Shown: positions 2,442 to 63,404 of the stretch, piece by piece
How the letters are laid out: each line of letters begins with the position of its first letter
How positions within the stretch are numbered: the first letter of the stretch is position 1
Assembly (NCBI GenBank): GCA_032718475.1
Contig: JAUCBJ010003333.1
Location: 1 to 64,000 of the forward strand
From: Nemertoderma westbladi
Lineage: Eukaryota > Animalia > Xenacoelomorpha
Length of the DNA stretch: 64,000 nucleotides
Direction: 5' to 3'
Notes under the pieces: generated by a model
What the model was told of the DNA's origin: nothing
The model's database searches: none
Seen by the model: only the letters and a program-made list of their open reading frames with translations
Translations under genes and position numbers: made by a program

Positions 2442-2459
2442 ACAAACAAAGATGACACA

Positions 2460-5798: not shown

Positions 5799-5852
5799 GT
5801 TTAACTTAGTTCGGAACTTGGGTTGTCCAGCAAAGGTGTCTTCGGCTAGTTC

Positions 5853-31338: not shown

Positions 31339-31444
31339 TCGTCTGGTGGCTGATGGCTCGGCTAGGTAGGGTGGAGTTCTTTGAGTTTAACTAGGGCGGC
31401 AGCTCGGTTTTAGTTACTGAGTTTAGCTGGGGAAGCAACACCGT

Positions 31445-31453
31445 TTTAGTTAC
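31445..31453 (-). promoter_or_regulatory. Non-tRNA primer-binding site of B (GTAACTAAA), complementary to LTR 31621-31629
   Basis: Abuts the 5' LTR end, lacks the TGG start of a tRNA PBS, and is an exact 9-nt inverted match to the LTR. Confidence 0.7.
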
Positions 31454-31990: not shown

Positions 31991-31995
31991 GGCAA

Positions 31996-34941
31996 CGCTT
32001 GCCAGTACTTGCAACTCCTGGTCTTATGGGTTCCGTCCCGATGTAATTGACATTGGAATCCTGGATTATAGCGTTTCCTGTATAGTCCTTCACGTATCGC
32101 GCTTAGGTTTATATGTACCGATTTAATGTTTTGGTTGTCTAGACTCGGCCTACTGGGTATATTGGGATTGTGTTTATTTTTGGTGTTATTTTCTTTCTGT
32201 CCCTGCCACGGTGTGGCCCTGCTACCAGCTAACTGTGGACTAGCAGTCCCCTGTACGGCCGCGTGTGGTAGTGACTGTCCGCATGACCTGTTCTCGTCCA
32301 AGGGGTTCGATGTTCTTGCTCCTATTGGGGTATATTGTCGATATTGTGATGGGGGAATGTCACCCTGTCCCCCCCCCCCCCCCAGCCGGTATGTTTGGTA
32401 CTGGGGTTGATGTTAATATATTGGGGCCCATACATCTATCTCCAATAACTCCCCCCTCCCCTGGATATATGTTATGTCCCTGTGTATTATAGTCATGCTG
32501 CTGTACCGATATAGGCCTACCTACCTCTCGCCTACCTACCGGTATGTACTCCGCGACTTCCGGGTTTAATCCCGTCGTTCGCGCTACCCTATCGCCTACT
32601 CTATCTCTCCCAGCATGGCCTATAATAGTATGTGCAGTAAGGCCTACAGTATGTCCTGCAGTCTGCATGTGCCCTTCCGAACCGAAGTTTATTCTTCGCG
32701 AATCTCGAATCTCCCCGCGACTACTGCACTCTCGATCGGCAGCTATATCCCGTCGGGAAGCTTCTCTTCGATCCCCTCTCCTGTTCTCGACTTTGTGTTG
32801 GTACGTCCTGTACCCCTCTCTTGGTGTGCGGTGCGTTTCTCCGGGGCGACGGCAATCTCCCGAAGTTCGACCCCACTGACTCCCCAACTCCATCTCTACT
32901 ATCGACGGTCCGCTATCCGTCCTCGCACTCGTATCGTTCGTGGCGACACTTCTTCTACTATCTTCTCCTCTTCTCTTTTTAGTGCAGTATTCCGGCTCGT
33001 GAGATCTCTCGTCGACCTCCCGGTTAAACTCCACTGTTCTTCTTCCCTCTTCTGATCGGGCTCAACGCTTCGTCTGCCCTCTCGCGACGTCAACGTGCCT
33101 CTCTGCTCGATCGCACGCCGCTGGGGATACTCGCAATCCCCCCATTACTCTCCATCGCCGGGTGTTGCGGTTTACCTAGCTCGGCCCGCGCATTATCCGC
33201 CGACGCCTGTGGGACACTCTCTGCCCCCCTCCTCTCGCTACTAATCTCTCGCGGTGGGGTGCCCGTAGCCCCCCCCCCCCCCCCCCACCCGCCACTTCTA
33301 ACTTCACTATCTCTTACTACACTTCTGCACCCTCTTGTCGGACATTCTCTACCCCCCTTCTCTCGCCACTAATCTTCCGTGATGGGGCTCCTGTAGCCCC
33401 CCCCCCCCCCCCCCCCCACTCGCCACATCTAACTTCACTATCTCTTACTTCACTTCTACACCCCTCTCTAGTCGACACACTATCTCTACTACGGCTGGGT
33501 CTATTCACCCCCGCCTCTCTCTCTACTACTGCGTGGCCTATCAGGCCCACCTCGGGTTGGCTCAACCCCGCTACCTCCTGCCTACCAACTACGTGGCCTA
33601 CCAGGCCGCCGTCGGGTTGGCTCAACCCCGCCACTTCCTGCCTACTAACTACGTGGCCTACCAGGCCGCCGTCTGCCGGGCTATACACGTCTGACACGCT
33701 CACATTAATAGCACCATTCCCAATATTATTTGTTAAATCAATTAAATCCCCTAAATCAATTAAATTATTAGAATTATTAGAATTTGAAACGGGATTATTA
33801 TTTAAATTAGAATTATTATTATTTTCAAAATTTAAATTATTATTCGAATTATTTGAATTATTCTGAATATTTGAATTAATATTATTATTTGAATTTAAAT
33901 TATTACCGGGTAAAATATTTCCTGTAATAAAGGGATTAGGGTTATCCTACTACGGTACTATTAATACCAACATTTCCTAACGTACTACTACTACCCCCCC
34001 CCCCCCCCGTACGGCTACTATGCGTACTGTACGTGTACCGCACGCTCTGTTCTCTTGCCTCACGCTCTTTGCGTTCACTCTCTTGCTCCTTCCTTCCCCT
34101 CAGTCGCCACTCTAATTCTTCCATTTTTAATTTATATGCCATGCGTTCATCTCTCTCGCACCCGTCTTTCTTTTGCGGAGGATGTAGCAGACTTATCGGT
34201 TGCGACGGACTCCCGCCGCCCCTCCGTCCTACTAACTTTCCCCCGCTTCCCGGGCTTCTCGCTGACCGACGAGACCGAATCCTCGGAGTTAACCTCGGAT
34301 TCGCCCTCGTGCGGTCCCTCCCAACCCACTAACTTAACTTCCCTGGCATCGACTAAGTATGGCCCTATGTACACTGCACCAGGCCCCATACCCCTACGTC
34401 CCATAGCCCAAACAGTTCGAAGGCAACCCCTCTCGCTCTCTCGCTGGCTAGTTCTCCCTGCCCAGAACGCACTAGGTAATCAAAGTATCTGTTCGACTCA
34501 CCTAGTCGCCTTTTCAACTTCACCTGGTCTATCTCGGCCCCTCCTCTAGCTTCTTTCAGTTGTTCCCGGGTCGCGGCGTAGGCTCGTCGGAGCCGGACGA
34601 CCCCGACGTCCTCGTCGCCGACATCTCCTCTCTCCCTCCGGGTCCGGCGTCGTACCGGCGGCTCCACCGTTGCCGTTCCGGTGGGCCGTCCGTCGCCCTC
34701 GGCCTGTGGCTGGCCGGCGACATCGGCACGTCGACCGCCACTCGTGTGTCGACTCGTCTCTCTCTCCTCCCGACTCGTCTCTCCCTTCTCGTTGTAGACG
34801 GCCCCCCTCCGTTTGGATTGCCGGATCGTCTGTAGTCGACGGATCCGGCGTCGCGGGTCGATACCGTCTCGCCGCGGCCTCGCGGATCGTTAGGTCGTCG
34901 TCCGGGGTCCGCGGCGGTGTCGTCTCTCTTTCTCGACTCAT
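31996..34941 (-). pseudogene. Degenerate proximal gag of element A with the capsid domain deleted
   Basis: Peptides collinear with B (TPDDDLTIREAA, YIGPYLVDAR, GLNPEVAEYIP, SLPHAAVQGTASP). DENRSC is fused directly to QSLP, skipping B ~27215-28030. Confidence 0.85.
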
Positions 34942-35010
34942 GTTATCCTGGCAGTCCTGTCTTTTCTTTAGATTGGTGGCTGGCAGTCACAGTCTTGGGC
35001 AACTTTGGGA

Positions 35011-40075: not shown

Positions 40076-41159
40076 CTACTACTAGGATCGGCATGCTGCA
40101 TTGCAGCTGCATTTTTATGAATGCTGTGCCGGCTTGTCAACAAAATTGCATCGCCACAACTCCCTATCACCCATGACATTTGCTAGATCATCCGCATCTT
40201 TAAGGCCAGTGTCCTTTAAGATGCGTCTCAAGAAAGTCATGGGCTGTCCACCATGCTTATTCACTCCATGAGGCTGCCAAAGTACAAGATTATGCACTGG
40301 CTGGTCCTCACGGCGAAAGCAATGTCCTGCAAAGCGGAGGCGATTTTGTTCTAGTGTCAAGCTTGGGGGAACCAATGAGACACCTCCAATGTTATATAGT
40401 GTCTGGTTGGAGATGTGTGCATTGTACTTGACACAATGAACCCGGCGTAGCATTCTTGTGAATGTGCCATCCAGAGATTTGGTGTCTTCAGCAGTTAGAG
40501 CCTAGCATGGACTCGCGTAGAGGAGTACTGGAACTACTGCTGCTCTAAATAATCGGACCTTGAGTTTCCGATTAATTCTCGGTGACTTCCAAATCCTGGA
40601 AAGCCTATTCAAGGCTGCCCATGCCTTTCCCTTACGTATTCGAAGGTCCTCACCTGACTTCCGGATCCATGATCCCAGGTAACAGAAGTCGTCCACATGC
40701 TCAAGCATACCATCCTCTGAGCTTATGCTCATCCGATCAGAGACTTGCTGAGGACTTTCAAAGTTAACTGTCAGAATTTTGGTCTTTCTGGAGTTAATAA
40801 AAAGACCAACACTAGAAGCAGCATGTTCCAATGAGCTGAGGAGCCTTTGGGCTCCCTCTAATGATTCTGAGAGTACTCCTAAGTCATCAGCAAAGTCCAC
40901 CAGTAGGTGGAGTTATCATCACCCCATCATCATTATAATGATCTGAGGACATGCGTAGAACATAGTCAACCACAATAATGAACAAGAATGGTGCAAGTGT
41001 GTCTCCTTGGAGGACGCCCCATAACACTTCAAATGGTTCTGTGTCACCATCAACAGTAGACACAAATGTTGTCGAACCATCGTATACTGATCTGATTGCT
41101 GCAATAATTTCATCAGGAATCCCATATAATGAAAGTATGCTGAACATACGTGAGCGAGA
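40076..41159 (-). mobile_element. 5'-truncated RTE-like LINE, copy 1
   Basis: GVLQGDTLAPFLF, DFADDL, FCYLGS, RLRFAGHC; (TAG)n tail; 15-bp TSD CTTACTTTCGGACTA at 40061-40075 and 41160-41174. Confidence 0.92.
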
Positions 41160-41642
41160 CTTACTTTCGGACTAACAATCACTCTTATATGAAAAGAACT
41201 TCACAGTCTACTCCAATATTAAAATTGTTTGCGAATTCGAATTGTTTGTGAAACATATATGTTTCATCATAATATGAATTTTTATCGTAGTTGTTAATGG
41301 AAGATGGCACAACCGAATTATATTTAGAATGTATAGGCCCTAGCCAGCAAACTTGTGGTGCTGTATGTTGGTACAGTACATTAATAGTTGTTATGGGTAA
41401 AATGAATTATTGCGGAATTTCAGAACAGTAATAATATTTATTAATAATGTTAATAACCTACTGCATTAGCTTTATGATGTTTAGGATGCATATTTGGTGT
41501 CCAGAATCGATAATGGATATACTCTGTGTTCCTATTAAAGTACTGATAATGTAATAATATATATGATTATTGCTTATTTGTTTTTTTTTAATAATATAAA
41601 TAAGGTATTAATTATTATAAAACAAAGAATCTTAATAATGAA

Positions 41643-43712: not shown

Positions 43713-46084
43713 TTAATTAATTAACCTATTTAATTGTTTAAACATATAAATATTACCATCCTCACCAACAACTACAAACTTCAATGAGTTTAAAGAACAG
43801 CTGATATTAATAGAATAAAGAACAGTTCTTATAGGAATTCTTTGTAAAAATTCACCTTTAACTGAAAATAACGAAATATTTAAATCGCCTCTAATAATAA
43901 TCGTATCACAATCTTTGTTTACAAAGTTCACAGCTCTGACCCCCTCTACAGTGTTTATTACAGCCGTAGGTTTGTAATTAAACTTAGTAATAATAGATAA
44001 TTTATTAACCCAATTAGTCGCTTTGCTAATCCAATCTAATTCCTTTATATTTAAACTTTCATTATTTATAGGAAACTGAATTCCGTCTTTAGAATAAACT
44101 AATACAACTGAACCCTTTACTACGGCTATGTAGGAGCTGTTGGGAGAGAAAGCGAATGCGGTTAAACTGAAACTTTCTAACTCAGTAACTGGGAATCCGT
44201 CGTCAGTTACTTTTACTAACCAACTGAATAACTTATTGTTACTTAACCCATAAACAAAAATAATTCTAGAATCAGATAAAACTACCAACCCGCAACCCTT
44301 TGCGAATTCACCAACAACCGAATGTTTCCCAGTTAATATATCGGTAAGAACTAATTTACCGCTCTCATCTAGAGTTGCTACTGTATTGTTACAGTTTAAT
44401 GCTACTAACTCACTAATCTTAGACCCCGGATTGGGTTGTAATTCTCTAATTAAGTGCCCCGGTTTCCCTACCAAGCAACGATATAATTCCCATCGTAATT
44501 CAGATTCTTCCTGTTCCCCTAAGAATCTCCCATATCGATAATATTCTCGGAGTAACTCAGCCGACTCTTTATAACTCCACACACTGAGTTTATCAGCCGC
44601 TCTACTAACTAAATAGTTCGATGGAGCAACAAAAACTAATTTCTCTACACGTTCAGTAGATGTTTTTGGTAAAGTAATAAATTTATTTTCATAATAAACA
44701 CAAATAATTCCGTTGCGACATGCGTAAGCGAAAACCGGTTGGTTTTCTATTCCAGTTAACGACATTATCCGACTCTCTCCGTCGTTATTTAGTTCAATAT
44801 TCCCTTCCATATCCATTATATGGAGGGAGTCCCACGTACTCGCTGCTATGGTAACCGGTTCCGTATCTAGAACAGCTCGAACCCCCAGGTATCCAGTTAG
44901 TTTACCACCGCTGGACGATTTTGTACCGACGCTGTTAATGTTTAGGGTTACAGTATCGGCCCCAATGTTACAGTAACACATAAACTTACCAGATTGAGTT
45001 ACATCCACGCGGCTGGATGTCAACTTAACCGGTCCGATTGTACCGGTTACCATTCGGTGGTGGGTTAGTTCTCCGGTTTTACCGACCAGTAGTTCCGCAC
45101 CCGATCGCCCGAATGGAAGTTCGGTTATTATAAGAACGCGATCCACCGCTCCGAGGTATTTAATTCCTTGGAGATGAATTTTGTATAACTCGTTGGTAAA
45201 TCTCCACCCCCATATCAGCTTCCCATCCAATAAGTTCCAACATTCTACATGGAACCATATCAACTCAACATTATCTTTATAACCTATAATTATTATATCG
45301 TCCGCAACCCAATCGAGACATTCTATAGCAAATCCACTGAACTCAAAGACTTTAATTGGCTTTTGTATTGAAGATAAATTAATAAAATCCCAAAGTTTAA
45401 CCCCCGGAGTTGGAGTTGGGTAAGTGGAGTAGGTTATTAGATGTTTAGCTGTTGGTGAGAATGAAACTCCAATATGAAGGGGGGTAATGAGGTTATATAG
45501 AAGATAATAAAGAAAGTTCTGCCTCGGGTCAGTTGGAGGAATTGGAGGTAGGCTGATAGGGGAGTGGGCCTCCCAAGTTATAGTGGAGTCGGGGACCTCC
45601 GTATTGATACAACTGATAGTCCCGTTGTGGGATGAGAAACAGAATATATTTGAATCCTTTGGATGGAAGTTTATACTGTTTGTGAGTATCGGTGATGTTT
45701 TATTGATTAAATCTTCCTCCTTTATTACCGAATGGGAATCAAAATGATCGAATATTAATTCTCCATCAGTTGAATCCCGAATATGAATCCATCCATCTAA
45801 AGTTCGGTAACATATTCTTCTTCCATCAGCCGATAATTTTGCATCATATAGCGATGGTTTGATATTAATTTTATCTTCTGTAATAATCTTCTTCCCACTG
45901 GCAGCATCGCAAATCATTAACTTATTATTGACGTAAACTAGAATCGTTTTTCCATCAGCAGATAACTGAATTCCATACGTCAACCGGGTCTCGTAATCCT
46001 TCAGTAACTTTATCGATAAGGTTTCATCTGTTTCATCTCTTGTTCTATTCATTGAGTTGATGAGATCGAAATAAAGTTTATTTT
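43713..46084 (-). CDS. Exon 2: WD40/beta-propeller region (~790 aa)
   Basis: Repeated propeller turns (LSADGK, LSADGR, FHPKDS, FSPTAK, VKLWDF, VECWNL, FSPNSS); uninterrupted ORF. Confidence 0.88.
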
Positions 46085-49000
46085 CTGCAAATAATGAAAT
46101 AACAACACAAACTAAGCAGATGATTATAATAAATTATAATTGATTAATAATAAAATATTATTTACAATTTACAAATATTAATAGGGTATTGTTCTACTTC
46201 TAATATGGTATGTCCGGCTGTCCGGTACAATGCCAGACAACTGTAGCCTGTAGGCTGAGGTAAAAGTGGATGCTGGAGCGACACAACCGGTCCATATAAT
46301 ATAAGCAGCATGCAAGCAAGATATATAGGCCCGTGCCATAGACAGTAAAGGGGATAATGAAATAGGCCTATACTGTATATATCCATACCAACTCCCCCTT
46401 TAGGCGATTTTGTCAGTTCAAAATTGTTTACAGTGAACCCCATACAACATATTATAGTTTAAAAATAATAAATGACTACACATTATTCTAGTGTAATAAT
46501 TAATTGTTATAGTCTCCAAATCTAACAGTAGGTTTTGTTACACGAGTGCTGCGGCGTATTACACTCTTACTTTCAGTTTCCAATTCCGGTGTTGGAACTG
46601 TTTTCTGTTGGATTGGGTTCGGTGGTGTTTCGAGTTCAATGACCTCGTGGTAGCGACGGAGAAAACGTCTGTTTCGCCACCATGTACGACCTGAAGGTAG
46701 TTTAACGTGGTAGTCTCGTCGTTTTCCGGCCCCAACTATAATACCGACACGATCCCAACGTTTAGATCTGGAGTCTTGCAGGCAAACTTTTGTGCCTATT
46801 AGGAATGGTTTGAGGTCCCGCGCCGTTGAATTGTAGTGTTTGACGGCTTTCTCGCGAATAGTTTCGTGTCGTGTGTCAGCTGTCTCGGCTGACTGCTGCC
46901 ATTTCGGGTCAAATGAAGTGTGATGGGCTGGTACACGCGATCGCAGGTTGCGCCCAAAAACGATCTGGCTTGGTGAGCGACCATCCGCGTGTGGTGTGTT
47001 TCGTACCTCGAGTAAACCTTCGAGGAATTCCTCAGAATTTATGTCTGAGGTTGTCGTTTTTGCCAATATAACTTTAATGAGTTTTACGTGGCATTCCGCG
47101 TCCGCGTGCCCGTTACTGGACGGCGTACTAGGCGCCCATTCGACCCCCCAACGTTGCAGGAATTTCCTAAAGTTGGATGTGGCGAATTGAGGTCCTCCAT
47201 CGCTTCAAAGTTTGGTTGGAACGCCTAAGTCGACGAAACATTTCCGTAACAAGCTGACGACTTGTTGTGATGTTGGGTCATTACGCCATTGACCAACGAG
47301 TGGATAACCAGATAACAAATCTGTGCAAACAATGTAGTGTCGGCCGGCGAGAGAGAATAGGTCTGTCAATGCATGTTCAAAGGGTCTGGTTGGCTGTGGG
47401 TCGGCAACCAACGTCTCCTTCGGCAGGCTTGGTAGTCGTTCTTGGCACTGATGACATTGCTGAACCATTTGGATTATGTCATTGTTTATTCCCGGCCAGT
47501 AGACTGCGGACCGCGCTCTTTGTTTTGTCCGCGTCATACCCTGGTGGGCGGCATGTAGGCGTTCTAGAATTTCGGCTCGTTTCGCACTAGGTATAACCAG
47601 GCGTGGACCATATAATACCAGGCCGTTATCTACGGAGAGTTCGTTATGTATGGATTTAAATTGCTGGACGAATCCGGAGGTGTGGTTTTCAGTTGTGAAG
47701 CCGCTTAGGATTTCAGTAACTAATTGCAGATAGGCCTTATCGTTTAAGGCTACCTTCCGGATTTCCTCGATAATGGGGTCTGTTGTAGGTGGTTCTAGAA
47801 CGTTTTCAGGATCTAAGTCCCGAGTATCAGTCAATGCTATCCGTATAGCTGCTATGGTTCTTGTGACATCGTCATCTTCCTTTAATAATTCATCAGTGGT
47901 ATCGGGGTCATCCACTGGAGCTCGGCTGAGACAGTCTGCAATTTTATTGTCTTTACCTTTTTGCCACACTAATTCAAATTGATATTTCGATTGCAGCTGA
48001 GCTTTAATTTGCTGGAGTTTTGTATTATCGACTTGATCCAGGGTTTGTTTATTGAAGATTGAAAGTAAAGGCCGATGGTCAGTCATAACTTTAAAACTTT
48101 ATAATCCAGCTAAATATAGGTGGCATTTACTCATTGCATATTTTATAACAATGGCTTCCAATTCTATTGAGGCATACCGGGTTTCGGCATCCGATATAAA
48201 TCGGCTTCCACAGGCAATGAACTTCCATTTATTATTATTATTTTGCAGTAAATCGAAGCCAAATCCGTTCAATCGACTGGCGTCTACTTCTAACCATGTT
48301 TCTGCGTGCGGATCGAAGGGTACCAGGATTGGAGGTTTTAGAAGTGTGGATTTAACAGCCTCGAATGCATTATCATGCATTATTTCCCATGTAAAATGGT
48401 TGCGAGTTCATACTCGCGCAATGGAGTCGCTGCAGCACTGCCTTCCGAGGAAAAGCAACCGAGTTGGTTAACGAGTCCCATAAAACTTCTGAGTTCACTT
48501 ATGTTAGTTGGTTTGGGAAACTCGGAGATTGCCTTTACTTTGTTGGGGTCTGCCTCGATGCCGTTGTGTGAAACGATATATCCTGCGAACTTTACTCGTT
48601 CTTGAGCAAAGTTGAACTTTTCAGGATGGAGGGTGATGCGACCTACTCATCGGTTTAAGTTGGCCTTTGATGGCAAAGACGTCACTAAACTCTTCCAGAA
48701 GTTTTTGTTTTATTTTGTCTACGAGTTCAGCATCTATGTTAATAGGTGCAACCACTTGATTTTCCTTCACTAAATGGAGTGGTATGGGGAATTCGTCGTG
48801 GACGATGTTGAAGGCTTTACAAGCTGTAAAGGAAAGATAAATATCTTTAATTCCGTCACAAATATAAACCCATTCGTTGTAACGCATGTTTTCAATCTGT
48901 AGAGTTAGTTTTAAATGTCCCATACATTTTATTGGATTGCTGTTTATTGCTTCCAGTGGCTCGTCTAATTCTCTAAGTTTATTTATAGATATACCGAGGC

Positions 49001-52000
49001 GATTTAGAATACCGATTCCACCAGCGGTGACGTCTGCGCCGGTGTCTGCAATGCAAGCGCTTGTTGTTAGCAGTTTCCCCGTACCGGTATGCACGAATTG
49101 TACGGAGATGCGAGGTTTACCGGCCTCCCAGGCTAGTTCGCGTGGTTCGAGCCAATTTTCGCGAGGGAAATCGCACCGGAAGTTGCCTTCTTTGGTTGGC
49201 GACATAGATGGGTGCCTGTATGGAATCCATCCAAAAAGTGCGCCGGATAGCGCGCCGACCAATTTTTATGCGCGCCGCGCGCCGATGCCATTTCGAAGAT
49301 AAACCCCACGCCAACTAAATTTTTAAGCACGCCGATGCAATTTCGAAGAAACCCCGCGCCAACTAAATTTTTAAGCGCGCCACACATTGAAACAATTTTG
49401 AAGAGCGCCACGCCAATGCAAATTCAATTTTGAGGGAGTGTAACCAATCTGTTTCTGAATCTGAATCAATTTTTAAACAGCTAATGCTATTTTTAAGGCA
49501 CTTATCCATAATTGTTAAACCTGTAATGCTGTAGCCTAAACTAACAAATCGGCGCCGGTTTTTTTTTTGGGAGCGCCACGCGCCGCGGCCGCCCTATATC
49601 TGTATACAACAGTAGCCTAACCACTGAACCATATAACAGAAAAAGAAAGGCGAGCAAAGCGAGCCGAAATTTTTAAACAGCTAATGCTATTTTTAAGGCA
49701 CTTATCCATAATTGTTAAACCTGTAAACTAACAAATCGGCGCCGGTTTTTATTTTTGGGAGCGCCACGCGCCAAAGCTGAAAGCCGGCGCGCTTTACGAT
49801 TTTCAAGCGCGCCGCGCGCCACGCGCCTAAGTCGGCGCGCTTTACGATTTACGAGCGCGCCACGCGCCACATTGGCGCGCTTTTATTGCAAAGTGCGCCG
49901 GATTAATCCGGCGCAAAGTGTATGGATTCCAGTCTGGGATGGGTGAAGTGGCCGATACGTTCACATTTTTTGCATTCGCGGCCAATGGCTTTACACAGTT
50001 TATCTTTCTCGTGAGGTCAAACTCCACCATATTTCCATCAGCGATTATTGTCTCGTATTTGTGGATGGGGTTTGAATTGTCGACCTTTACTGGAGCTCCG
50101 TTGGCTATCTGACTTACTAAAATTACGCCCTCGGTTCTGAGGTTTAACTGCGTTAACTTTGTATGTCAGTCGTAGTTCTTCCCGAACAGCCAGCTCCCGA
50201 TTACGGCAAAAATCGACAGTTTCATCGCGGGATAGGGCAAGCCTTTTACCCAAAAGTTCCTGGCGTACCTCCTCATCCCGTATACCGCAAACTATTAAAG
50301 TGGAGATCCAGTCATCCTTTGTCATAACTTCGATGTTTGCGTCATCCACCAGTTCGCACAACTGAATGTAGTAATCGTCGAACGACTGTTTGTCTTCCTG
50401 TTTAGTCCGTACCAGTTTGTAGCGGTCTACAGTTATATTCTGTTGTGCGCGGAGGTGTTCCCGTATTTTTACAAGGATTTCGTCCATTGACAGTCGGGTA
50501 TCTTGAGGAATTTTGACAGCATAATGCATCCGGTTCAGGAAATCAGGGCTGCAATAGGGTATGAAAAGAACGTTGCCACCTGATCTTCCATCGGTTTGCT
50601 GTCGAGTTTTGTCACCCGGGCATAATTGCGCCATGTTGTCTCCCACCATTTAAATGTTTTGTAGGAAACGTCATCCTCGATAATGTTTGGCGGGTGTACT
50701 GTACAGTGAGTTTGGTTGCCTCGCGGTCTTGGGGACGTCTGGAGCTTCCGTGTGTTGCCGATCCCGGGCCCGCAGCTGCTATTACGTCGCGCTCTTCCCG
50801 CAATCCCTCAAGTAAACGCTGTTGGTTTGATCGACGAGGTAGAGGAGTTGTCTGTGCTCTTCCGCCCGTTCTCGTCGTTCAACCCGCTGTTCTTCCATTC
50901 GTTTAGCATCCTGGTCGACAAAGTGCGCGAAGAGTTTAGCTAAATCGGAACCTCCGACTTCTCCGGTTTGTTCAGGTTCTGATTCTGCTCCTTCTACGAA
51001 CTTTAGCAACCGTTTTCTAAGAACTGTTGTTGCCGTTCTGTCGCTGTGCTTAATTCCGGCATTTGCGAGGTGTGCTTTAATAGTCGCCCGGTCAAGGTGT
51101 TCTATCAAAGCTGGATCAATTTCCCACGTTTCATCCTGGGTTGGGAGTTCGTCCATCACGCAAATTAAATATGTTTTTTTAATATATGAAAATTCCAATT
51201 ATTAATTATTAAGTAAACAACGTCAGAACGTGCAGAAGTGCAGTCGATCGATGATGGATCGGTGATATTGCAGTGCAGTTTATTGCGTAAGTTCAAGCGC
51301 AGCGCGGTACTGGTACTGCGCCTATCTCACACGCCATGGTATGTCCGGCTGTCCAGTACATAGCCAGACAACTGTAGCCTGTAGGCTGAGGTAAAAGTGG
51401 ATGCTGGAGCGACACAACCGGTCCATATAATATAAGCAGCATGCAAGCAAGATATATAGGCCCGTGCCATAGACAGTAAAGGGGATAATGAAATAGGCCT
51501 ATACTGTATATATCCATACCATAATAGAGAGGGATATTTATAATACCGGTACGAATAATCTGCTATCCAATATTAAGTAATATCCATGCTATGGGGGGGG
51601 GGGTCTTTTTTTAAATTTCTTTGTAATACATCTGTATCTTTGAGTCAACATCGTTGGAAAAACAGAGATTTCGTGACTTTTCATAAAGTTTAATGGGCAA
51701 TCCAACAGAGCAAACGCCAAAACATCTCTTTCGTCCCTTTCTTGTACCCATCTCAGTATTTTCTGTGCTAAAATTGCAACAGATTTTATTATAACTTTTC
51801 GTTGGCACAGCTTTTGCAAAGTCGTCTATGACATCCAGATGGGATAGAACTGGTGACCTCCGGGTTGGAAGTTTGACGCTCTAACCATTCAGCTAGCGGC
51901 CAGGCAAAAGATAGAACTGGAAATAACAATTCTATCTGGTAAATAAAGTGTCACAGTACGCCGATGATGCAAAGTTTTTTATAATTGATGATGACGCTGA

Positions 52001-55000
52001 TGTTCTAGAATTCCTACTAGTTTTATTATAACAATTTTCTCTGGTCTCAGGCCTCGAACTAAAATGAATCCAAAACCGAAATTATCCGTATCGGCAAAAC
52101 AAAGAATTCTAGAGTGAAACTATGCCCCCATCGTAAATTAAAATGGTTAGAGCCGGATTAACCCTTCAATGTCCTCGGTGTTTTAATATCCTCTGATACT
52201 ACCAAAATAGAAAAAATGAATTTTACACGATGCATTAAAAAAGTTAAGATGACAATAAATTTATGGAGAAAACATAAGCTGACACTTTTAGGTAGAGCTA
52301 CCATCATTAAATCACTCATACTGCCAAAATTTATGTATAGCTTCTCGTGTTTGAAAACACTATCGCAAACTACCATGAACAATGACATTAAACGACATTT
52401 TGTGGGAAGGAAAACCTCCAAAATTCAAACATAATATACTTATTGCGGATATTACAACTGGGGGTATAAAACTGCCAGACATAGTGGAGTATGCAAAAAG
52501 TCAGAAAATAAAAAGGATAGCTAAAATCTCTAAAAGAGAAAGCTAAGTTATATGGAACGAACTCGCATGAAATAGCTTTACAACAAGTATAAATAATGAG
52601 ATTTTTATATGTTGCTGTAACTTACACGAGAAGGTATGGGCCTGTGTAAAAATGAATTCTGGGAAGAAGTTCTTGCTATCTGGTGCAAACTTATTAATAC
52701 ATGTGATCAGAAAGACACAGATCTACAAGAAACAAAAATAATAAATTAAGATTACATCTGGCTTAATTCCAAAATAAAAATTAACAATAAACCACTATTT
52801 TGGCCAGATTGGATCTCAAAAGGAGTATATTTATTGTGCCACTTAATTGCACCAGTAGCTAACAATCAGTTCCGTTATATAAGTCTCATCGATGCTATTA
52901 CGCCGACCCACAGAAAGAAACTAAGAACTAAAATTCAAAGTCCAGCCTTTATAAAATCTCATTATATTTTAGGAGTAGTGGGGTCAACAAACCGCGCGTA
53001 CCTCACTTTCATACATGAAAAAATACAAACAAATAAATTAATAATTTAATTAATAATTAATTTGAAAATAAATAATTCAATATTAAAATATAAATTTAAA
53101 GCTGTGCCCAACAAAAAGTTATAGGGCCAAATAATTTGATAAATGAATTGAATTAAATGAATGGATAAAATAAATTATTTTTTCCATTTCTGAACAAAAC
53201 ATTTAACATCACACCATAATAATTTGAAACCACTCATTCGCCCTAACACCAATAATAAAAGATTTTATGGCTCACTAAAATTAATTTATTTGCAGTATTG
53301 CGGTATTTTTGCAGGGAGCAGGTGAGAGGCGTATTGTTGCAAAGGCTGCCTGGGGGTACATGTTGTGACAGGAGAAACAGTTAAGAAGATTATTTTTTCG
53401 ATTCAGTTATTCAGTACTGAGTAATAAATAGCCTTTCAAATAAATGTAAAGTGCATTTTTTATTCGTATGAAATTAAATTTTCTGCTAACTTATTTCATA
53501 GACTAAATTTAGTGAATTTGTTATCGATATTTCGCTTATTCCACTTTTCGTTGTTTCATTCTCGAGTTATGGAAACTTTTGTAATTTTCACCCAAAATTG
53601 AAAAATTTGTAATTTTGGTGCAGCACCACATTTGACACCAAAAAATGATCATAAAACACACAAAAATTTCGAAATATCTTGCCATTTACGGATTCAGCGC
53701 CGAAACTTACTACTAGAGGTACTTCTTCAGCCGTTAGGCCAGGGTTTCCTCCACTAGAGTTTCCTCAGGGGGACCGCGCTGGAAATAGTAATCATACGTT
53801 AACGTTGTGCGTATTGCACAACGTTAACGTATGATTACTATTTCCAGCGCGGTCCCCCTGAGGAAACTCTAGTACTCATTTAACTTCCATTTAAGTTTGC
53901 AAGGCAGATTTTGCGCCCTGGCTTTAAAACATTCTCGCCGGCCTCCATGCGGGGATCAAAAACACGACCTCCGGAGAGATATGAACCACTACACCAAGAA
54001 GGTGGGACTAACATACATGTCGCACAATCTCAGAATTGAGTTAACAGACTCCATCTCATGCTGCACAATTTCCGAATTGAGTTAACAGACTCCGTATCAT
54101 GCTGCACAATCTCCGGATTGAGTTAACAGACTACGTCTCATGTCGCACAATCTCCGGATTGAGTTAACAGACTCCGTCTCATGTCACACAATCTCCGTAT
54201 TGAGTTAACAGACTCCGTATCATGTCGCACAATCTCTGGATTGAGTTAACAGACTCCGTCTCATGTCGCACAATCTCCGGAATGAGTTAACAGACTCCGT
54301 ATCATGTCGCACAATCTCCGGATTGAGTTAACAGACTCCGTATCATGTCGCACAATCTCCGGATTCAGTTAACAGACTCCGTCTCATGTCGCACAATCTC
54401 TGGATTGAGTTAACAGACTCCGTATCATGTCGCACAATCTACGGATTGAGTTAACAGACTACGTATCATGCTGCACAATCTCCGGATTGAGTTAACAGAC
54501 TAGGTCTCATGTCGCACAATCTCTGGATTGAGTTAACAGACTCCGTCTCATGTCGCACAATCTCCGGAATGAGTTAACAGACTCCGTATCATGTCGCACA
54601 ATCTCCGGATTCAGTTAACAGACTCCGTCTCATGTCGCACAATCTCTGGATTGAGTTAACAGACTCCGTATCATGTCGCACAATCTACGGATTGAGTTAA
54701 CAGACTACGTATCATGCTGCACAATCTCCGGATTGAGTTAACAGACTAGGTCTCATGTCGCACAATCTCTGGATTGAGTTAACAGACTCCGTCTCATGTC
54801 GCACAATCTCCGGAATGAGTTAACAGACTCCGTATCATGTCGCACAATCTCCGGATTGAGTTAACAGACTAGGTCTCAAGTCGCACAATCTCCGGATTGA
54901 GTTAACAGACTCCTTCTCATGTCACACAATCTCCGTATTGAGTTAACAGACTCCGTATCATGTCGCACAATCTCTGGATTGAGTTAACAGACTCCGTCTC

Positions 55001-58000
55001 ATGTCGCACAATCTCCGGATTGAGTTAACAGACTCCTTCTCATGTCGCACAATCTCCGGATTGAGTTAACAGACTCCGTATCATGTCGCACAATCTCCGG
55101 ATTGAGTTAACAGACTCCGTATCATGCTGCACAATCTCCGGATTGAGTTAACAGAATCCGTATCATGTCGCACAATCTCCAGATTAAGTTAACAGACTCC
55201 TTCTCATGTCGCACAATCTCTGGATTGTGTTAACAGACTCCGTATCATGTCGCACAATCTCCGGATTGAGTTAACAGACTCCTTCTCATGTCGCACAATC
55301 TCTGGATTGTGTTAACAGACTCCGTATCAGGCTGCACAATCTCCGGATTGAGTTAACAGACTACGTCTCATGTCGCACAATCTCCGGATTGAGTTAACAG
55401 ACTACGTCTCATGTCGCACAATCTCCGAATTGAGTTAACAGACTACGTCTCATGTCGCACAATCTCCGGATTGAGTTAACAGACTACGTCTCATGTCGCA
55501 CAATCTCCGAATTGAGTTAACAGACTACGTCTCATGTCGCACAATCTCCGGATTGAGTTAACAGACTACGTCTCATGTCGCACAATTTCCGGATTAAGTT
55601 AACAGACTACGTCTCATGTCGCACAATCTCCGGATTGAGTTAACAGACTACGTCTCATGTCGCACAATTTCCGGATTGAGTTAACAGACTACGTCTCATG
55701 TCGCACAATCCCGGATTGAGTTAACAGACTACGTCTCATGTCGCACAATCTCCGGATTGAGTTAACAGACTCCGTATCATGTCGCACAATCTCCGGATTG
55801 AATTAACAGACTACGTCTCATGTCGCACAATCTCCGGATTGAGTTAACAGACTACGTCTCATGTCGCACAATCTCCGGATTGAGTTAACAGACTCCGTAT
55901 CATGTCGCACAATCTCCGGATTGAATTAACAGACTACGTTTCATGTCGCACAATCTTCGGATTGAGTTAACAGACTACGTTTCATGTTGCACAATCTCCG
56001 AATTGAGTTAACAGACTCCGTATCATGTCGCACAATCTCCGGATTGAGTTAACAGACTACGTCTCATGTCGCACAATCTCCGGAATGAGTTAACAGACTC
56101 CGTCTCATGTCGCACAATCTCCGGATTCAGTTAACAGACTACGTCTCATGTCGCACAATCTCCGGAATGAGTTAACAGACTCCGTCTCATGTCGCACAAT
56201 CTCCGGATTCAGTTAACAGACTCCGTATCATGTCGCACAATCTCCAGATTTAGTTAACAGACTCCGGCTCATGCTGCACAATCTCCAGATTCAGTTAACA
56301 GACTCCGTATCATGTCGCACAATCTCCAGATTTAGTTAACAGACTCCGGCTCATGCTGCACAATCTCCAGATTCAGTTAACAGACTCCGTATCATGTCGC
56401 ACAATCTCCGGATTGAGTTAACAGACTACGTCTCATGTCGCACAATCTCCGGAATGAGTTAACAGACTCCGTCTCATGTCGCACAATCTCCGGATTCAGT
56501 TAACAGACTCCGTATCATGTCGCACAATCTCCAGATTTAGTTAACAGACTCCGGCTCATGCTGCACAATCTCCAGATTCAGTTAACAGACTCCGTATCAT
56601 GTCGCACAATCTCCAGATTTAGTTAACAGACTCCGGCTCATGCTGCACAATCTCCAGATTCAGTTAACAGACTCCGTATCATGTCGCCCAATCTCCGGAT
56701 TCAGTTAACAGACTCCGTCTCATGTCGCACAATCTCCGGATTGAGTTAACAGACTCCGTCTTTTGTCGCACAATCTCCGTATTGAGTTAACAGACTCCGT
56801 CCCATGTCGCACACTCTCTGAATTGAGTTAACAGACTCCGTCTCATGTCGCACAATCTCCGGATTGAGTTAACAGACTCCGTCTCATGTCGCACAATCCG
56901 GATTGAGTTAACAGATTCCGTATCATGTCGACAATCTCCGGATTGAGTTAACAGACTACGTCTCAAGTCGCACAATCTCCGGATTGAGTTAACAGACTCC
57001 GTCTCCAGTCGCACAATCTCTCGATTGAGTTAACAGACTCCGTCTGATGTCGCACAACCTCCGGATTGAGTTAACAGACTCCGTCTGATGTCGCACAACC
57101 TCCGGATTGAGTTAACAGACTCCTTCTTATGTCGCACAATCTCCAGATTCAGTTAACAGTCCCCTGTAACATTGCCCTGAGTCGCTCAAAAATTACGTAA
57201 ACTTAGATTTTACAAACTTATGTACAGTATATTCTGTGCTACATTAATTAATATTATACCATCTACATTAATCAATAATGTTGGGTATTATTATGTATTT
57301 GTGTTTATCTGTTATATAAGTTTATGCAACTATTGAACGGTCGGTGCGCTTATTGTATTTGTTAATTATTTAATTATTGTTAAATGATTTGCATTTCGTC
57401 ATTAAAACTAATTAAATAACTATTAGAAAGACTGTTGAGTGGAAACTCACTCAGGTAATGGGTAACTTACACCTTATCCATTAACTACGTATTATTCCAT
57501 AGTATGTTACTGGGATAGATTGTGCGAATTTTATAATTCAGCTCAATGTCTCTCACTTACTTCTATACATTTTTACGTAGGTTATACAGTGTGTTACATA
57601 TTTAGTTGACACACTTACCATCATTGCATAACTCTTGAACTGCGAATTCCCGTGACTTTTTGTAAAATCCCGATGTTTTTGGAGCCATCAATCCGACTTG
57701 AATTATGTCGCACCTTTCTGTCCCAGTGAGGTTCGCACATAGTCGACGGATTGTCGATCGGAATATTTCCTGTTCTGCTTTTTGGTCTTCCGAAAGTTTC
57801 TGGTCAGCCAATTCGTAATCAGCAATAAGATTCGCAGGTCCACTGAACTTAATCTTTGATTTAATCCAAAGAATGTTAGTTAGTAGTTGGTGTCTTTCTT
57901 CCCAGAGAGTTGCTTTCGCCATATGATTAGCAAGGAATTCATACTTATAGTTGGAAAGTTTCTGTCCCTCCTCCGCTAATTTCAATTCATTGAACTTATA

Positions 58001-59830
58001 AACTATTAGCCGATGATATTTAAATGCATCTTCTTGCTTCTCGTTAATAAATTCATTCAACAATGGATGTAAAGACCAAAGTTCAAAACCTGAATTATAG
58101 GATAGAAGAGATTTATTTACCAGATTATTCAATGTAAATATTGTATCGAAAATATCTAAATCCCAGAAGAATGCAACAATTTCTTTTTGAAATTGTTGAC
58201 AGCCAACTTGTGAAAAAAGAGCAAGATTAATATAACGGTCTCTATCTGCCTCTGATAGATACTCAATACTGAGTTCGATTGTTGAATTGATTGAATCTTT
58301 ATATTTCAACTTTGACATTTTTCTCCCATCTATTTGACATAGACGATCTTCAATATTGCTCCATGTTACTTGAGGATTGTATTTCTTTATGGCCCCTACT
58401 ATGTTTACTGCCAAAGGTGAGCCATGGCATTTAGAAATTAAATGTTTAACTTCCATCATCTTTAAAATTTCTCCATCTCCAAGCCATTTTGCAAGTAACT
58501 CAAAACATTGAAGTTCACTTAATCCAACCTTAACTTCAATTTCAGATACATTGGTAGAGCAATCAGAATAAATACACATCTTATCACGTGTTGTCAGCAT
58601 AATTAGGCAATTTATATCGAAAGCTTCTGTTACAAATTCATCCCAAACATCATCTAAAACTATCAATATACGTTTTGAGGGAAACTTGTGAATTAATTTA
58701 TTCAATGCATTTTTGCAGCTCTTAATACTAAACAACTGGCTGACTAATTGAGAACTTGTTTCATCTAACATTAAACAGATTTCTTTCATTTTCTGCAGGA
58801 GACTATTTTCACCACCAGGACTGACTCCCAAAGGTCCAATATTCTGCCAAATTATACCATCGGGAAACGATTTTATAATAACTTCATCGTTTACGGCATC
58901 GATTGCCAAAGTTGTTTTCCCTATGGCAGCCATTCCCGATATAACTACCCAACCTGGTTGACCTTTCAGCTCATTCAGACCCTTTCTAACCTTTTCTACC
59001 ATGTCGGGGCGGGGAATGTGATAATTGGGAACCCTTGGAATTAACCAGCGCGGAAAATCAGGTGGAATTTGTGGAACAAATTCTAAAAGGTGTGCTGATT
59101 TTGCTAAATAATCATATATTTGTGGATGTGATATAATAGAATTTCCATCTGTACCTCGATGCACAATGTTATAATTCCTCAACACTGGTAATAAATCCAC
59201 TTTAACATCATCCCCAGCTTTTTTTTTATTTAGGATATTGTTAACTACTTTACAAACATAATGTATGAAAGTCGACCCCTGGTCTTCGTACATTGGTAAA
59301 GTCTCACCTGGACTGCAACCGATTGCTACAGCTGTATGTTCAAATATACGATCAGAGAAATTTAAATCGAAGTCTGGATAAGGGTTTGATTGACAGGCTT
59401 CTACAAAGAATATCCGAGGTTTTGGAACCGGACCACTTAGTGCCAAACATTCTGTTGAGAATAGTTCCACAATTTTTTTTATAGGTACTGTTACTTCGTT
59501 GGAACAAACAAGCTTACCCTCAATTCCATGACTCATAAGGAATACAAATAAACACTCAATGTCATTTAATTGTTTCTGATTACTAAATTCAGTTAGGAAT
59601 TGTATCAACTCATCATCTGTTATGTTCTTCTTCACTTCACCTTTCTCATCTATATATTCCACTATCTCACAACCCAACTTGCCTCCAAATATTTCCTTAA
59701 TGATTTTTACATCATGTGATGACCCTTCTCCTCTGTCAGAGTATTTAGTACCGCGATAATCTGTAATATTTATTATCAGACATAATTGTTTACCATCTCC
59801 TGTAATTTTGTATGAGTTTGATTCCGCCAT
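43713..59830 (-). CDS. APAF1-like: Caspase-domain/NB-ARC/WD40 fusion protein (Apaf-1-like), 2 exons join(59830..57619, 46084..43713), 1527 aa
   Basis: Donor G|GTAAGT at 57619/57618 and acceptor TTTCATTATTTGCAG| at 46085/46084 join in frame (phase 1). The junction peptide QELCNDENKLYFDLINS resembles Apaf-1 QEVDNGMLYLEWIN. Confidence 0.85.
46206..46390 (-). repeat. 3' LTR of the Gypsy element
   Basis: TGGTATG...CATACCA; matches 51337-51521. Confidence 0.95.
46500..49130 (-). pseudogene. pol: Gypsy pol remnants (PR, RT C-terminus, RNase H, integrase) with stops and frameshifts
   Basis: IADTGADVT; KFAGYIV...LRSFMGL; VDAS...YASIELEA; TDHRPL; NKIADCLSR; HAAHQG...CHQC; GRSPSQIVFGR. The YxDD region is missing at ~48640. 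Confidence 0.9.
49215..49937. mobile_element. 723-bp non-autonomous DNA transposon (MITE) with 8-bp TSD (hAT-like)
   Basis: TSD GATGGGTG at 49207-49214 and 49938-49945. Imperfect TIRs CC(T/A)G..TGGAATCCAT and GCGCGCC subterminal repeats. Removal restores CKKCERIGHFTHLC. Confidence 0.85.
49946..51156 (-). pseudogene. gag: Gypsy gag remnants (ORFs 50782-51198 and 50038-50649)
   Basis: RTKQEDKQSFDDYYIQL, LIVCGIRDEEVRQELL, and a CCHC knuckle split by the MITE. Confidence 0.8.
51337..51521 (-). repeat. 5' LTR of the Gypsy element
   Basis: Matches 46206-46390; followed on the minus strand by a TGG-starting tRNA-type PBS. Confidence 0.95.
51828..51925 (-). repeat. tRNA-derived SINE-like head, copy 2
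   Basis: Similar to 12921-13018, with A/B-box-like motifs. Confidence 0.58.
51935..53040 (+). mobile_element. Decayed L1/Tx1-clade LINE RT fragment
   Basis: KVSQYADD, FSLVSGLEL, LTLLGRATIIKSLILPKFMY, GGIKLPD; many stops. Confidence 0.82.
53753..53873. repeat. Perfect foldback, 58-bp arms and 5-nt loop
   Basis: 53753-53810 is the exact reverse complement of 53816-53873. Confidence 0.92.
54016..57159. repeat. 41-bp tandem satellite, ~76 copies, intronic
   Basis: Consensus GAGTTAACAGACTCCGTCTCATGTCGCACAATCTCCGGATT, head-to-tail with no unique spacers. Confidence 0.96.
57619..59830 (-). CDS. Exon 1: caspase (peptidase C14) domain plus Apaf-1-type NB-ARC, WHD and HD2 (ORF reads on to a stop at 57602 if unspliced)
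   Basis: Caspase motifs CLIINI, FLMSHG, KPRIFFVEACQ, SPG...GSTFI. NB-ARC motifs Walker A GMAAIGKT, Walker B LIVLDDVWD, MLTTRDK, CHGSPLA, LVNKSLL, LHPLL, WIKSKIKFSGPANLIADY. Confidence 0.93.
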
Positions 59831-60014
59831 AACATAAAAGAAGCTTTGTAGTTTATGTTGTTATTAATTGATTTATGCTGTACGCACGTAATTTATCAAG
59901 CTACTTTTGTCAATAAACTAACCAACAAGTTGTCAAAGTGTTTACAATATTTAATTATATATATCTACGCAATTAATATAACTACGTTTTTTTAAACAAT
60001 AACTTAGTTTATAT

Positions 60015-60347
60015 ACTACTACTAATACTAGGTCGAGCGAACTCGGACAGTGGAAATGAGATCCTTCCAGGCTTCCCGATTCTCCATAGTTTGTCGCAAT
60101 TTCGTTTCTCCCAAGTTCAGTATCCCTTTCAAGCTGATCTATATATGTTATGGCCGGTCGGCCACGACTACGCTTTCCATGAGTTGGTCGCCAGAAAAGT
60201 AGATCTGGTATGACCTCGTCTTTACTAAAAGCACGGCGTTTTTATGTGTTGTCTCCAGGTGATGTTTAGGGCTGCCCTCAGGAGTCTTGTGTAGCAACCA
60301 TCAAATCGTTGTTCAAGTGATTTAGTCAGTGTCCAGGTCTCACCCCC
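60015..60347 (-). mobile_element. Short 3' fragment of a second RTE-like LINE family
   Basis: GETWTLTKSLEQRFDGCYTRLLRAALNITWRQH...WRPTHGKRSRGRP; (TAG)n-like tail. Confidence 0.8.
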
Positions 60348-60460
60348 GTTTAAAAAAGTTTAGTTTAGTTTAGTTTATATAATTTCGTAAAATAATATAC
60401 AAAATAATATAAACCTTTATTAATGATTATAATATAGTTTGAGCTGTTAAAAAATCGAGT

Positions 60461-61527
60461 CTACTACTAGGATCTGCATGCTGCATTGCAGCTGCATTTT
60501 TAAGAATGCTGTGCTGGCTTGTCAACAAAATTGCACCGCCACAACTCCCTATCACCCATGACATTTGCTAGATCATCCGCATCTTTAAGGCCAGTGTACT
60601 TTAAGATGCGTCTCAAGAAAGTCATGGGCTGTCCACCATGCTTATTCACTCCATGAGGCTGCCAAAGTACAAGATTATGCACTGGCTGGTCCTCACGGCG
60701 AAAGCAATGTCCTGCAAAGCGGAGGCGATTTTGTTCTAGTGTCAAGGTTGGGGGAACCAATGAGACACCTCCAATGTTATATAGTGTCTGGTTGGAGATG
60801 TGTGCATTGTACTTGACACAATGAACCCGGCGTAGCATTCTTGTGAATGTGCCATCCAGAGATTTGGTGTCCTCAGCAGTTAGAGCCCAGCATGGACTCC
60901 CGTAGAGGAGTACTGGAACTACTGCTGCTCTAAATAATCGGACCTTAAGTTTCCGATTAATTCTCGGTGACTTCCAAATCCTGGAAAGCATATTCAAGGC
61001 TGCCCATGCCTTTCCCTTACGTATTCGAAGGTCCTAACCTGACTTCCGGATCCATGATCCCAGGTAACAGAAGTCGTCCACATGCTCAAGCATACCATCC
61101 TTTGAGCTTATGCTCATCCGATCAGAGACTTGCTGAGGACTTTCAAAGTTAACTGTCAGAATTTTGGTCTTTCTGGAGTTAATAAAAAGACCAACACTAG
61201 AAGCAGCATGTTCTAATGAGCTGAGGAGCCGTTGGGCTCCCTCTAATAATTCTGAGAGTACTCCTAAGTCATCAGCAAAGTCTAGATCAGTTAGGTACTT
61301 GGCAGGATTTCCTCAACTTCTGGAGCCAGTAGGTGGAGTTATCATCACCCCATTATCAATATAATGATCTAAGGACATGCGTAGAACATAGTCAACCACA
61401 ATAATGAACAAGAATGGTGCAAGTGTGTCTCCTTGGAGGACGCCCCATAACACTTCAAATGGTTCTGTGTCACCATCAACAGTAGACACAAATGTTGTCG
61501 AACCATCGTATACTGATCTGATTGCTG
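60461..61527 (-). mobile_element. 5'-truncated RTE-like LINE, copy 2 (near-identical to 40076-41159)
   Basis: Long direct repeat of copy 1; retains ~40 bp before DFADD that copy 1 lacks. Confidence 0.92.
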
Positions 61528-63404
61528 ATGATTGTACATGAGAGATTCGTGTTTGTAAACCAATAGGCAGATAATTGTAATATTAAATACGATAAATATT
61601 TCTTGCCAATAGCTCAGCCTAAGCAATCATAATAATATTGGACCTTGTATAGCAAAGTTGGCGAACAGTGCCTGGTAACCTAGCAACCAATATGATAGGA
61701 GTGGTTTATACATGTTAACCCACCACCCCCCCCCCCCCCCCCCCCCCGCCCTTTCCCTGGCCAATAATTATATGACACCATCGGCACAGCCTATCAGAAT
61801 AGCTATTCGATTAGCCAATCAACATTCCTTACTACATTAATCAGTAGTATCTAATATCGTTTGATTAATTAATGTCGTCAGGCGAGCCACGAAGTTGGCG
61901 GAGTCTTAACAAACTAATACTGTTACTGATTTAGTAAAGTAATAGCTATCCATTATATTATTGTAAAAAAATTTGGAAAATTTTCAGAATACACCTTCTT
62001 GCAATCACTGCCATGAAATAGAACATTTATACCTTAATAAGTTACAACATTTGAAACGGAATGGAAGTAAATATGGTAGAAACAAAAATAGTTAAGATTA
62101 GAAAAGCCGGCCGTCTCACTCAAAATGACTCTTTCACATACTTTACGACTACAAACCCGTCACAATGTCAAATAAGTATGAATACCTCGTGTCACCCTAC
62201 AAACAGCGCTGTGCTTCACCAACCATATAAAAACCAAAATAAAAAAATGTTACGGTGCAATCGGCTCCATTTCTCACCTATATCTGCTCTCGGGCCAGTT
62301 ATAAAGTCTATAACATGTCCCTCGGGTAAATAACTCGTAAAATAACTAAATAACCTGGTAATAAATTATGTTATAAAGTTGGAAACAATTTCTATTAATG
62401 ACAAATTTAAATTCTTATAAAATATGTAACTTTTATAGCTAATAGGAATAGAACAGTTGTCAACAATAAAACAGGGGTAATATTGAAGGGGCACTTTAGC
62501 ATAGCCCGATGTGTGGGCGTTTTTTGAAAATTTTGCAGCATTTTTAAAATAATTTTTTTTTAGTTTTTAAATGGTAACTGGAACAAATATAATATTATGT
62601 TCAAATAAAATAAAACAAGTCGGCAATTTAATCAAATGAACGATCGAAATGAACACAAATTAATTTTAGATAATAATTCTTTAAATGTTCAAGAAAAATG
62701 TCAGCTATTTGTTATATTTTGTTATATATTATTATATATATTATTTTATAAAAAATAATGTTCTAGAACAAATATTTTTACCCTGGAACTTTTTTTTCCC
62801 GAGAAAAAAAACAAGGCTTGCATTAATATAAACCATAAACCTCTAAAACGCGAGAAAGGAGTTGTCACAAGCAATTGAACTATTGAAAGGATTTACAAAA
62901 TTTCGTGCTGGCACCAAAATTGCAAAACTGCACCGAAAAATACAAGTTTGATACGCCTGGTGAAACTCGTATACTGAATATTCTATCGAAACCAGAAACC
63001 CAAAAACCCCTATTGCGTAAAAAAAAACAGGTTCAAAACAATCAATTTACAAAATTGACTTATTTAAAAATTTGGTGCTGCACCAAAATTTGGCCCCGAG
63101 AAAAACAAGTTTGAAATTTTTAAATTAATTTATATGAATTCCATCTAATTGCAAACACCAACAGTCCACTGATGCACCCGTCTAGTTATATTAATATTCA
63201 GTTGAAATATTTCAAATTAATAAAATACTAAGAAGGTATTATATTCTAGTTCAAAATAAATACTAACCAAATATCATCTTCAAACTTACGTGAGGACAAC
63301 ATCTGTTATTCACACACAATAAACTCTCGACGGCTCGTCGTGACTACAACATAAACACTGATAGTTGGATTAACCGTTAAACTCCTCCCAACGTTCCATT
63401 ACAT

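Follow-up and report, generated by a model that had tools for sequence, protein, structure and literature searches.

The minus strand of a 64,000-nucleotide stretch of Nemertoderma westbladi DNA (Xenacoelomorpha; assembly GCA_032718475.1, contig JAUCBJ010003333.1, positions 1 to 64,000; hereafter, the window) encodes an Apaf-1-like STAND protein with a built-in caspase: a caspase catalytic domain of animal type is followed by an Apaf-1-type nucleotide switch and, across a predicted splice, by two diverged β-propellers. The fusion is genuine, and the searches made turned up no earlier description of it; one-piece designs that both sense and cut have so far been described only in bacteria and fungi. 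An earlier note, made from the sequence alone, had called this gene an Apaf-1-like sensor with a caspase in place of the CARD.

Gene structure and predicted splice

The fusion is contained in a single exon. Two long open frames lie on the minus strand (57605-59860 and 43716-46133), and the probability of a stop-free run, calculated from base composition, is ~1e-26 for each exon. Exon 1 is one stop-free frame of 2212 nt (59830-57619, Met at 59830), in which Pfam recognizes Peptidase_C14 (residues 15-198, E 6.4e-21), NB-ARC (276-523, E 2.2e-28) and APAF1_C (606-732, E 9e-21), an array that no intron interrupts, and in which residues 264-736 align with human Apaf-1 119-590 (E 2.3e-58). Because all three domains share one open exon, the caspase-switch fusion does not depend on the splice prediction, and the direct fusion of a caspase fold to NB-ARC, the winged-helix domain (WHD) and helical domain 2 (HD2) claimed in the earlier note holds. 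The gene is laid out as follows:

59084-59830, minus strand: caspase catalytic domain, residues 1-249 (Pfam C14 and PDB caspase matches)
59042-59083, minus strand: proline-rich tether, ~14 residues (250-263), in place of the Apaf-1 linker between CARD and nucleotide-binding domain (NBD) and of the helix α8 region
57619-59041, minus strand: Apaf-1-type NBD, helical domain 1 (HD1), WHD and HD2, residues 264-737 (Pfam, Apaf-1 alignment, motifs)
46085-57618, minus strand: predicted single phase-1 GT-AG intron, 11,534 bp (splice sites, junction scoring)
43713-46084, minus strand: exon 2, the HD2-propeller linker strand (LYFDL) and two highly diverged β-propellers (profile, AlphaFold, Foldseek)

The splice of exon 1 to exon 2 is strongly inferred from the sequence. 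The donor (ATG/GTAAGT, 57618) and the pyrimidine-rich acceptor (TTTGCAG/, 46084) are both in phase 1, and among 65 frame-compatible joins, combining 11 donors with 19 acceptors, this junction ranks first (120.1 bits; runner-up, 114.8). A profile built from 28 animal Apaf-1 proteins is colinear with the spliced product from position 113 to 728, running straight through the junction; a second aligned block covers profile positions 918-1229 of 1232, leaving residues 899-1142 of the protein unaligned. In animal Apaf-1, HD2 is followed by a motif that appears here a few residues into exon 2; since it keeps its usual spacing across the junction, no exon is missing. The predicted product is 1527 residues long, as the earlier note had proposed.

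Exon 2 is open for 790 codons up to a stop at 43715-43713, with AATAAA at 43578, and it ends where Apaf-1 ends (profile position 1229). The earlier note had described this part as ~790 residues of WD40 repeats and expected a domain search to return Peptidase_C14, NB-ARC, the Apaf-1 helical domain and WD40, with no CARD or DED; all of this was borne out except the WD40 match, exon 2 matching neither Pfam WD40 nor any PDB sequence. It scores 39.3 bits against the Apaf-1 profile, whereas the highest score listed among 200 shuffled versions is 1.6. An AlphaFold (AF2) model guided by the Apaf-1 alignment has β-propeller strands (pLDDT 61, pTM 0.52; over its first 80 residues the alignment is wrong and the model cannot be trusted); from the single sequence pLDDT is 34. 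In Foldseek many double-propeller proteins match the model, murine Apaf-1 best of all (E 1.5e-20; TM 0.51 to 3sfz), a ranking that, like the model, depends on the Apaf-1 alignment used as input. Profile and alignment-based model together assign two C-terminal β-propellers to the protein.

Two insertions in the propellers (~45570-45480 and ~44580-44460; model helices 186-199 and 504-538), helical or proline-rich, are absent from Apaf-1. In the model they are candidate ligand or partner sites.

A 4.6-kb frame kept intact at ~30% identity to its nearest relatives, among transposons whose frames are broken, implies purifying selection. Third-position GC is alike in the three parts of the gene (0.26, 0.30 and 0.33). 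The caspase part is short of CpG (12 observed, 21.9 +/- 3.8 expected) and exon 2 is not (86 observed, 74.8 +/- 5.6 expected); the depletion at the 5' end may stem from methylation that varies along the gene or from parts that differ in origin. Along the gene (59830-43713), the observed-to-expected CpG ratio is 0.56 in the caspase part, 0.73 in NB-ARC and 1.06 in exon 2.

Caspase domain and nucleotide switch

The N-terminal domain has the fold of an animal caspase (C14A) and an intact dyad: His101 (codon 59530-59528), followed by Gly102, and Cys146 (codon 59395-59393) are the residues that the earlier note had located as SHG at ~59528 and EACQ at ~59393. Among solved structures, the caspase-3/6/7 ancestor in PDB matches residues 4-149 (E 8.2e-11), chains of the caspase-3 type align to residues 4-150, and all of the 60 solved matches listed are animal caspases of the caspase-3 type. 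The CARD or DED prodomain of initiator caspases is absent: three residues precede the segment that matches caspase-3 from residue 34 onward. Word searches with the caspase part alone found no close relative; its small subunit taken alone has no caspase match, and Pfam C14 reaches only residue 198. The inter-subunit linker is presumably ~10 residues shorter than that of caspase-3. The predicted β6 strand is QIYDY (residues 237-241), and its aromatics are taken to occupy the positions of caspase-9 Phe404 and Phe406, with the register set by the flanking residues.

The S1 pocket departs from the canonical form, in which Arg179, Gln283 and Arg341 confer specificity for Asp (PMC2064784). In the alignment with solved caspases, Arg179 is kept as Arg33 and Gln283 is replaced by Glu144, and the cysteine motif EACQS has Ser where Gly normally follows. 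By the motif spacing of the caspase-3 small subunit, Met180 is probably the counterpart of Arg341. The pocket lacks the complete basic set, its Arg341 part being placed by motif spacing only, and it also lacks the acidic set of metacaspases and paracaspases (Arg179 to Leu, Gln283 to Asp, Arg341 to Asp/Glu), as the Arg is retained and Met stands at the 341 position. It thus appears to fit neither pattern.

The switch is homologous to animal Apaf-1 throughout NB-ARC, WHD and HD2 (APAF1_C). It keeps Walker A Lys305, Walker B DD393-394, sensor I Arg415, GxP and His588, together with the helices α12-13 of the initiator-specific motif (ISM), which in Apaf-1 lines the apoptosome pore (PMC5050015). 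The claim that it tracks Apaf-1 motif by motif stands broadly and fails at several positions, compared here with 33 animal rows (P0140 left out). The P-loop Gly, present in 33/33, is Ala302; the LHD motif is LHP, with Asp439 (Asp in 25/33, Pro in none) replaced by Pro589; and Asp392, also Asp in 25/33, is Val542. In closed Apaf-1, Arg265 bonds Asp439 in a triad with Asp244 and Asp392 (PMC4691890, PMC5050015); the closed-state LHD motif and acidic triad are broken here, with the His kept. A G-x-[VI]-P motif ahead of the NBD, found in 22 of 28 animal Apaf-1 proteins, is absent. We infer that the switch still binds nucleotide and forms rings and is less tightly latched than that of Apaf-1. The earlier note had missed the non-canonical S1 pocket, the changed auto-inhibitory acidic residues and P-loop glycine, and the ~14-residue tether.

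Relatives and comparable systems

The closest relatives of the switch are animal Apaf-1 proteins, and none found carries the caspase. Word searches with exon 1 returned 5 longer and 15 similar-length proteins, with coverage never above 61% of the exon. When 1.84 billion representatives were searched exhaustively, 4342 matched; in the best 150 of these, the best stretch always falls within the switch region. Ten of the top 11 are named animal Apaf-1, directly or through cluster members; the top matches comprise Apaf-1 of lamprey, zebrafish, hemichordate, nemertean, amphioxus, sea urchin, hagfish and horseshoe crab as well as unannotated jellyfish and sponge proteins, all at 28-32% identity. None of the 168 relatives fetched matches the caspase part (best E 0.075). 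Pfam was run on 30 of them (best 25 families each); one fetched relative, P0150, is a CHAT-NB-ARC protein. Metagenome scans with each exon found nothing. An Atlas search gave bacterial STAND and caspase-STAND clusters at a best score of 0.90, to be taken as a lead only.

In a tree of the switch region, the protein groups with animal Apaf-1 against non-animal NB-ARC-WD40 rows (SH-aLRT 99; of ten outgroup rows looked up, two are named bacterial, the others being taken as microbial from source and architecture). It appears on a long branch as sister to the whole set of animal Apaf-1 sampled, and midpoint rooting draws the same position on the other side. The switch appears to stem either from a paralogue that split off early or from an Apaf-1 evolving fast in a lineage outside the sample. 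Approximately unbiased (AU) tests (LG+G4, 21 rows, subject to long-branch bias) reject nesting in a four-row non-animal clade (p-AU 5e-5) and grouping with two sponges (p-AU 0.0007) or with two vertebrates (p-AU 0.017). Descent from microbial protease-STAND-WD40 proteins is likewise rejected: tree and AU test set the switch apart from the non-animal rows, the solved matches listed for the protease are animal caspases, and the fetched relatives do not match the caspase part.

Set against animal Apaf-1, which has the order CARD, NB-ARC, WHD, HD2 and two WD40 propellers and works with caspase-9, the protein is colinear with the profile from the NBD to the C-terminus. It differs in that a caspase domain occupies the slot of the CARD and helix α8 region, in LHP for LHD, Val for Asp392 and Ala for the P-loop Gly, in propellers that are ~150 residues longer and unrecognized by Pfam WD40, and in its long branch outside the sampled clade. 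Krasovec et al. define Apaf-1 by a CARD plus NB-ARC; within the window the N-terminal CARD is lacking, so that the name does not apply in this strict sense. Apaf-1-like proteins of Nematostella, sea urchin and amphioxus carry two CARDs, DD, DED or TIR at their N-termini (PMC2246300, PMC10959488), which shows that the N-terminal slot can be swapped; the domains reported in these sources are interaction domains, none a protease.

Animal sensors have been joined directly to caspase domains before: amphioxus has “shortcut” proteins, TNFR-caspase and LRR-caspase, one of them confirmed by cDNA (PMC2575513). As described there, these lack a STAND switch and keep QACXG, whereas the present protein has EACQS. 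The order protease, STAND NTPase, repeat sensor is that of microbial all-in-one receptors: metacaspase-NACHT/NB-ARC-WD40 proteins are widespread in bacteria (PMC3501461) and CHAT- or S8-protease NLRs occur in fungi (PMC12881547). Here, by contrast, the protease finds its best solved matches among animal caspases and the switch is of the animal Apaf-1 type, so it looks as if the protease-STAND design has been independently re-made from animal parts. Since such proteins exist in bacteria and fungi, the design is viable, and animals, too, can use an adaptor-free form of it.

The earlier note knew of no characterized animal protein with this architecture, and the 168 relatives and the literature agree: no animal caspase-NB-ARC fusion is described in the openly accessible literature searched, and none appears in the accessible portions of PMC11747288, PMC8891106 and PMC8195603. 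If the host group has been reported to lack Apaf-1, this gene would rewrite that loss, if true.

Proposed activation, alternatives and surroundings

The proposed mechanism, a one-piece apoptosome in which oligomerization dimerizes and activates the tethered protease, is given an even chance of being right. A ligand would open the propellers, nucleotide exchange would drive ring formation by the switches, and the ring would pair the caspase domains, tethered at their C-termini, and activate them without a CARD adaptor. The resting monomer would be held shut mainly by the propellers, because neither of the two acidic residues that grip sensor I in closed Apaf-1 is present here. The ligand would be other than cytochrome c, the propellers having diverged much further than those of other Apaf-1 proteins; dsDNA is a reported ligand of Apaf-1-like proteins (PMC11747288). 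The caspase would stay monomeric until ringed, since the bulky aromatics of β6, in the presumed register, resemble those of caspase-9, in which Phe404 and Phe406 maintain the monomer (PMC1088972). It would act without linker cleavage and with a non-canonical P1 preference, and the output would be an immune or death response, in keeping with the “death or immune switch” of the earlier note. The evolutionary counterpart of this mechanism is held a little less firmly: an animal lineage may have merged apoptosome and initiator caspase into a self-activating protein with a new specificity and a new ligand, on a branch outside the sampled animal Apaf-1, echoing the microbial protease-NLRs.

How the apoptosome activates caspase-9, by proximity-driven dimerization or by allosteric contact with the CARD disk, is disputed (PMC1088972, PMC5050015). 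This protein, which fixes the ratio of caspase to switch at 1:1, has no CARD disk and joins the two by a 14-residue tether, would test cleanly what proximity can do by itself; it would also serve as a compact protease that is gated by a ligand and encoded by one gene.

Several points weigh against the one-piece apoptosome. The ~14-residue proline-rich tether is very short: short linkers impair caspase-9 activation, and dimerization alone falls ~35-fold below the apoptosome (PMC5050015, PMC1088972). The activity of the caspase may be low or absent, given Glu144, probably Met180, and the Ser after the cysteine motif, and the last 50 residues of the domain are assigned by motif only. The P-loop Gly, invariant in the animal rows, has been changed. 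Finally, a single copy of the architecture is known, word, exhaustive and metagenome searches having found no relative that carries both a caspase and an Apaf-1-type switch.

The same S1 changes at Glu144 and, by motif spacing, probably at Met180 suggest the first alternative, which is unlikely overall: a weak or dead caspase would serve as a cFLIP-like docking module, which the ring presents in place of a CARD to activate or block a separate caspase. Inactive caspase-domain regulators exist, with cFLIP named among them (PMC8195603), and so short a tether would limit pairing within one ring. Yet His101-Gly102 and Cys146 have been kept despite ~30% identity to known caspases, and substitutions of Gln283 or Arg341 are present in other invertebrate caspases (PMC3037946; activity was not shown there).

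Less likely still is a switch that is degenerate or bypassed, with a propeller-less or a leaky full-length protein controlled, as CED-4 is, by expression or by an inhibitor. The frame of exon 1 closes five codons into the intron (stop, 57604-57602), so that read-through would give a 742-residue product, and the intron holds polyadenylation-like hexamers at 57374 and 51284, at which a transcript could terminate; LHD to LHP and Asp392 to Val remove closed-state contacts, and Apaf-1 1-570 activates caspase-9 without cytochrome c (PMC1088972). However, exon 2 has stayed open for 790 codons between a strong acceptor at its start and an Apaf-1 C-terminal motif at its end.

That the gene is a misassembled chimera, or a fusion of recent date without function, is improbable. 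The searches found no second copy, and CpG depletion sets the caspase part apart from exon 2; but the join is in frame within one exon, both domains are whole and exactly the CARD and linker have been removed, third-position GC is similar in the three parts, and 4.6 kb contain no stop or frameshift.

An exon beyond position 64000 adding a CARD or DED, giving a death-fold-caspase-Apaf-1 protein that still uses adaptors, is the least probable: the window ends only 4.2 kb upstream, introns here can be large (11.5 kb) and a long interspersed nuclear element (LINE) remnant crowds the apparent promoter, yet only three residues separate the start of the protein from the caspase core, an in-frame stop stands 10 codons ahead of the Met at 59830, the sequence before this Met showed no pyrimidine-rich acceptor, a CARD profile run over all six frames of the window found none (best E 1.1), and Pfam found no death-fold domain (CARD, DED or DD) among minus-strand frames of at least 25 residues, 50 of them upstream and 35 intronic (satellite and gypsy stretches left out), in line with the CARD-free N-terminus read in the earlier note.

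Repeats fill the intron and flank the gene:

54016-57159: 41-bp tandem satellite, 76.8 copies, 91% matches, intronic
46205-51521, minus strand (the gene's own): broken Ty3/gypsy-type long terminal repeat retrotransposon, intronic (RNase H and integrase Pfam matches)
59954-61626, minus strand: remnant of a broken LINE, immediately 5' of the start codon

The intron owes its 11.5-kb size to the gypsy element, the satellite and other repeats. The two terminal repeats of the gypsy element (46205-46390 and 51336-51521) share 98.4% identity and the element ends 120 bp from the exon-2 acceptor; it appears young though broken, and could cause premature transcript termination. Also in the intron is a perfect inverted repeat (53753-53873; 58 bp, 5-nt loop), which may be what is left of a collapsed DNA transposon. 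The gene is flanked on both sides by copies of a single LINE, nearly identical and on the same strand (40118-41200 and 59954-61626). The caspase-Apaf-1 gene is the sole host gene seen in the 64 kb; its similarity to true caspases, its GT-AG intron and the gypsy and BEL/Pao elements around it would suit an animal host. Elsewhere in the window, two minus-strand BEL/Pao retrotransposons (1368-9200 and 22798-27959) have long, nearly intact frames with Peptidase_A17, DUF1759 and DUF5641, and BEL/Pao-related pieces lie at 16773-18202 and 28110-35000.

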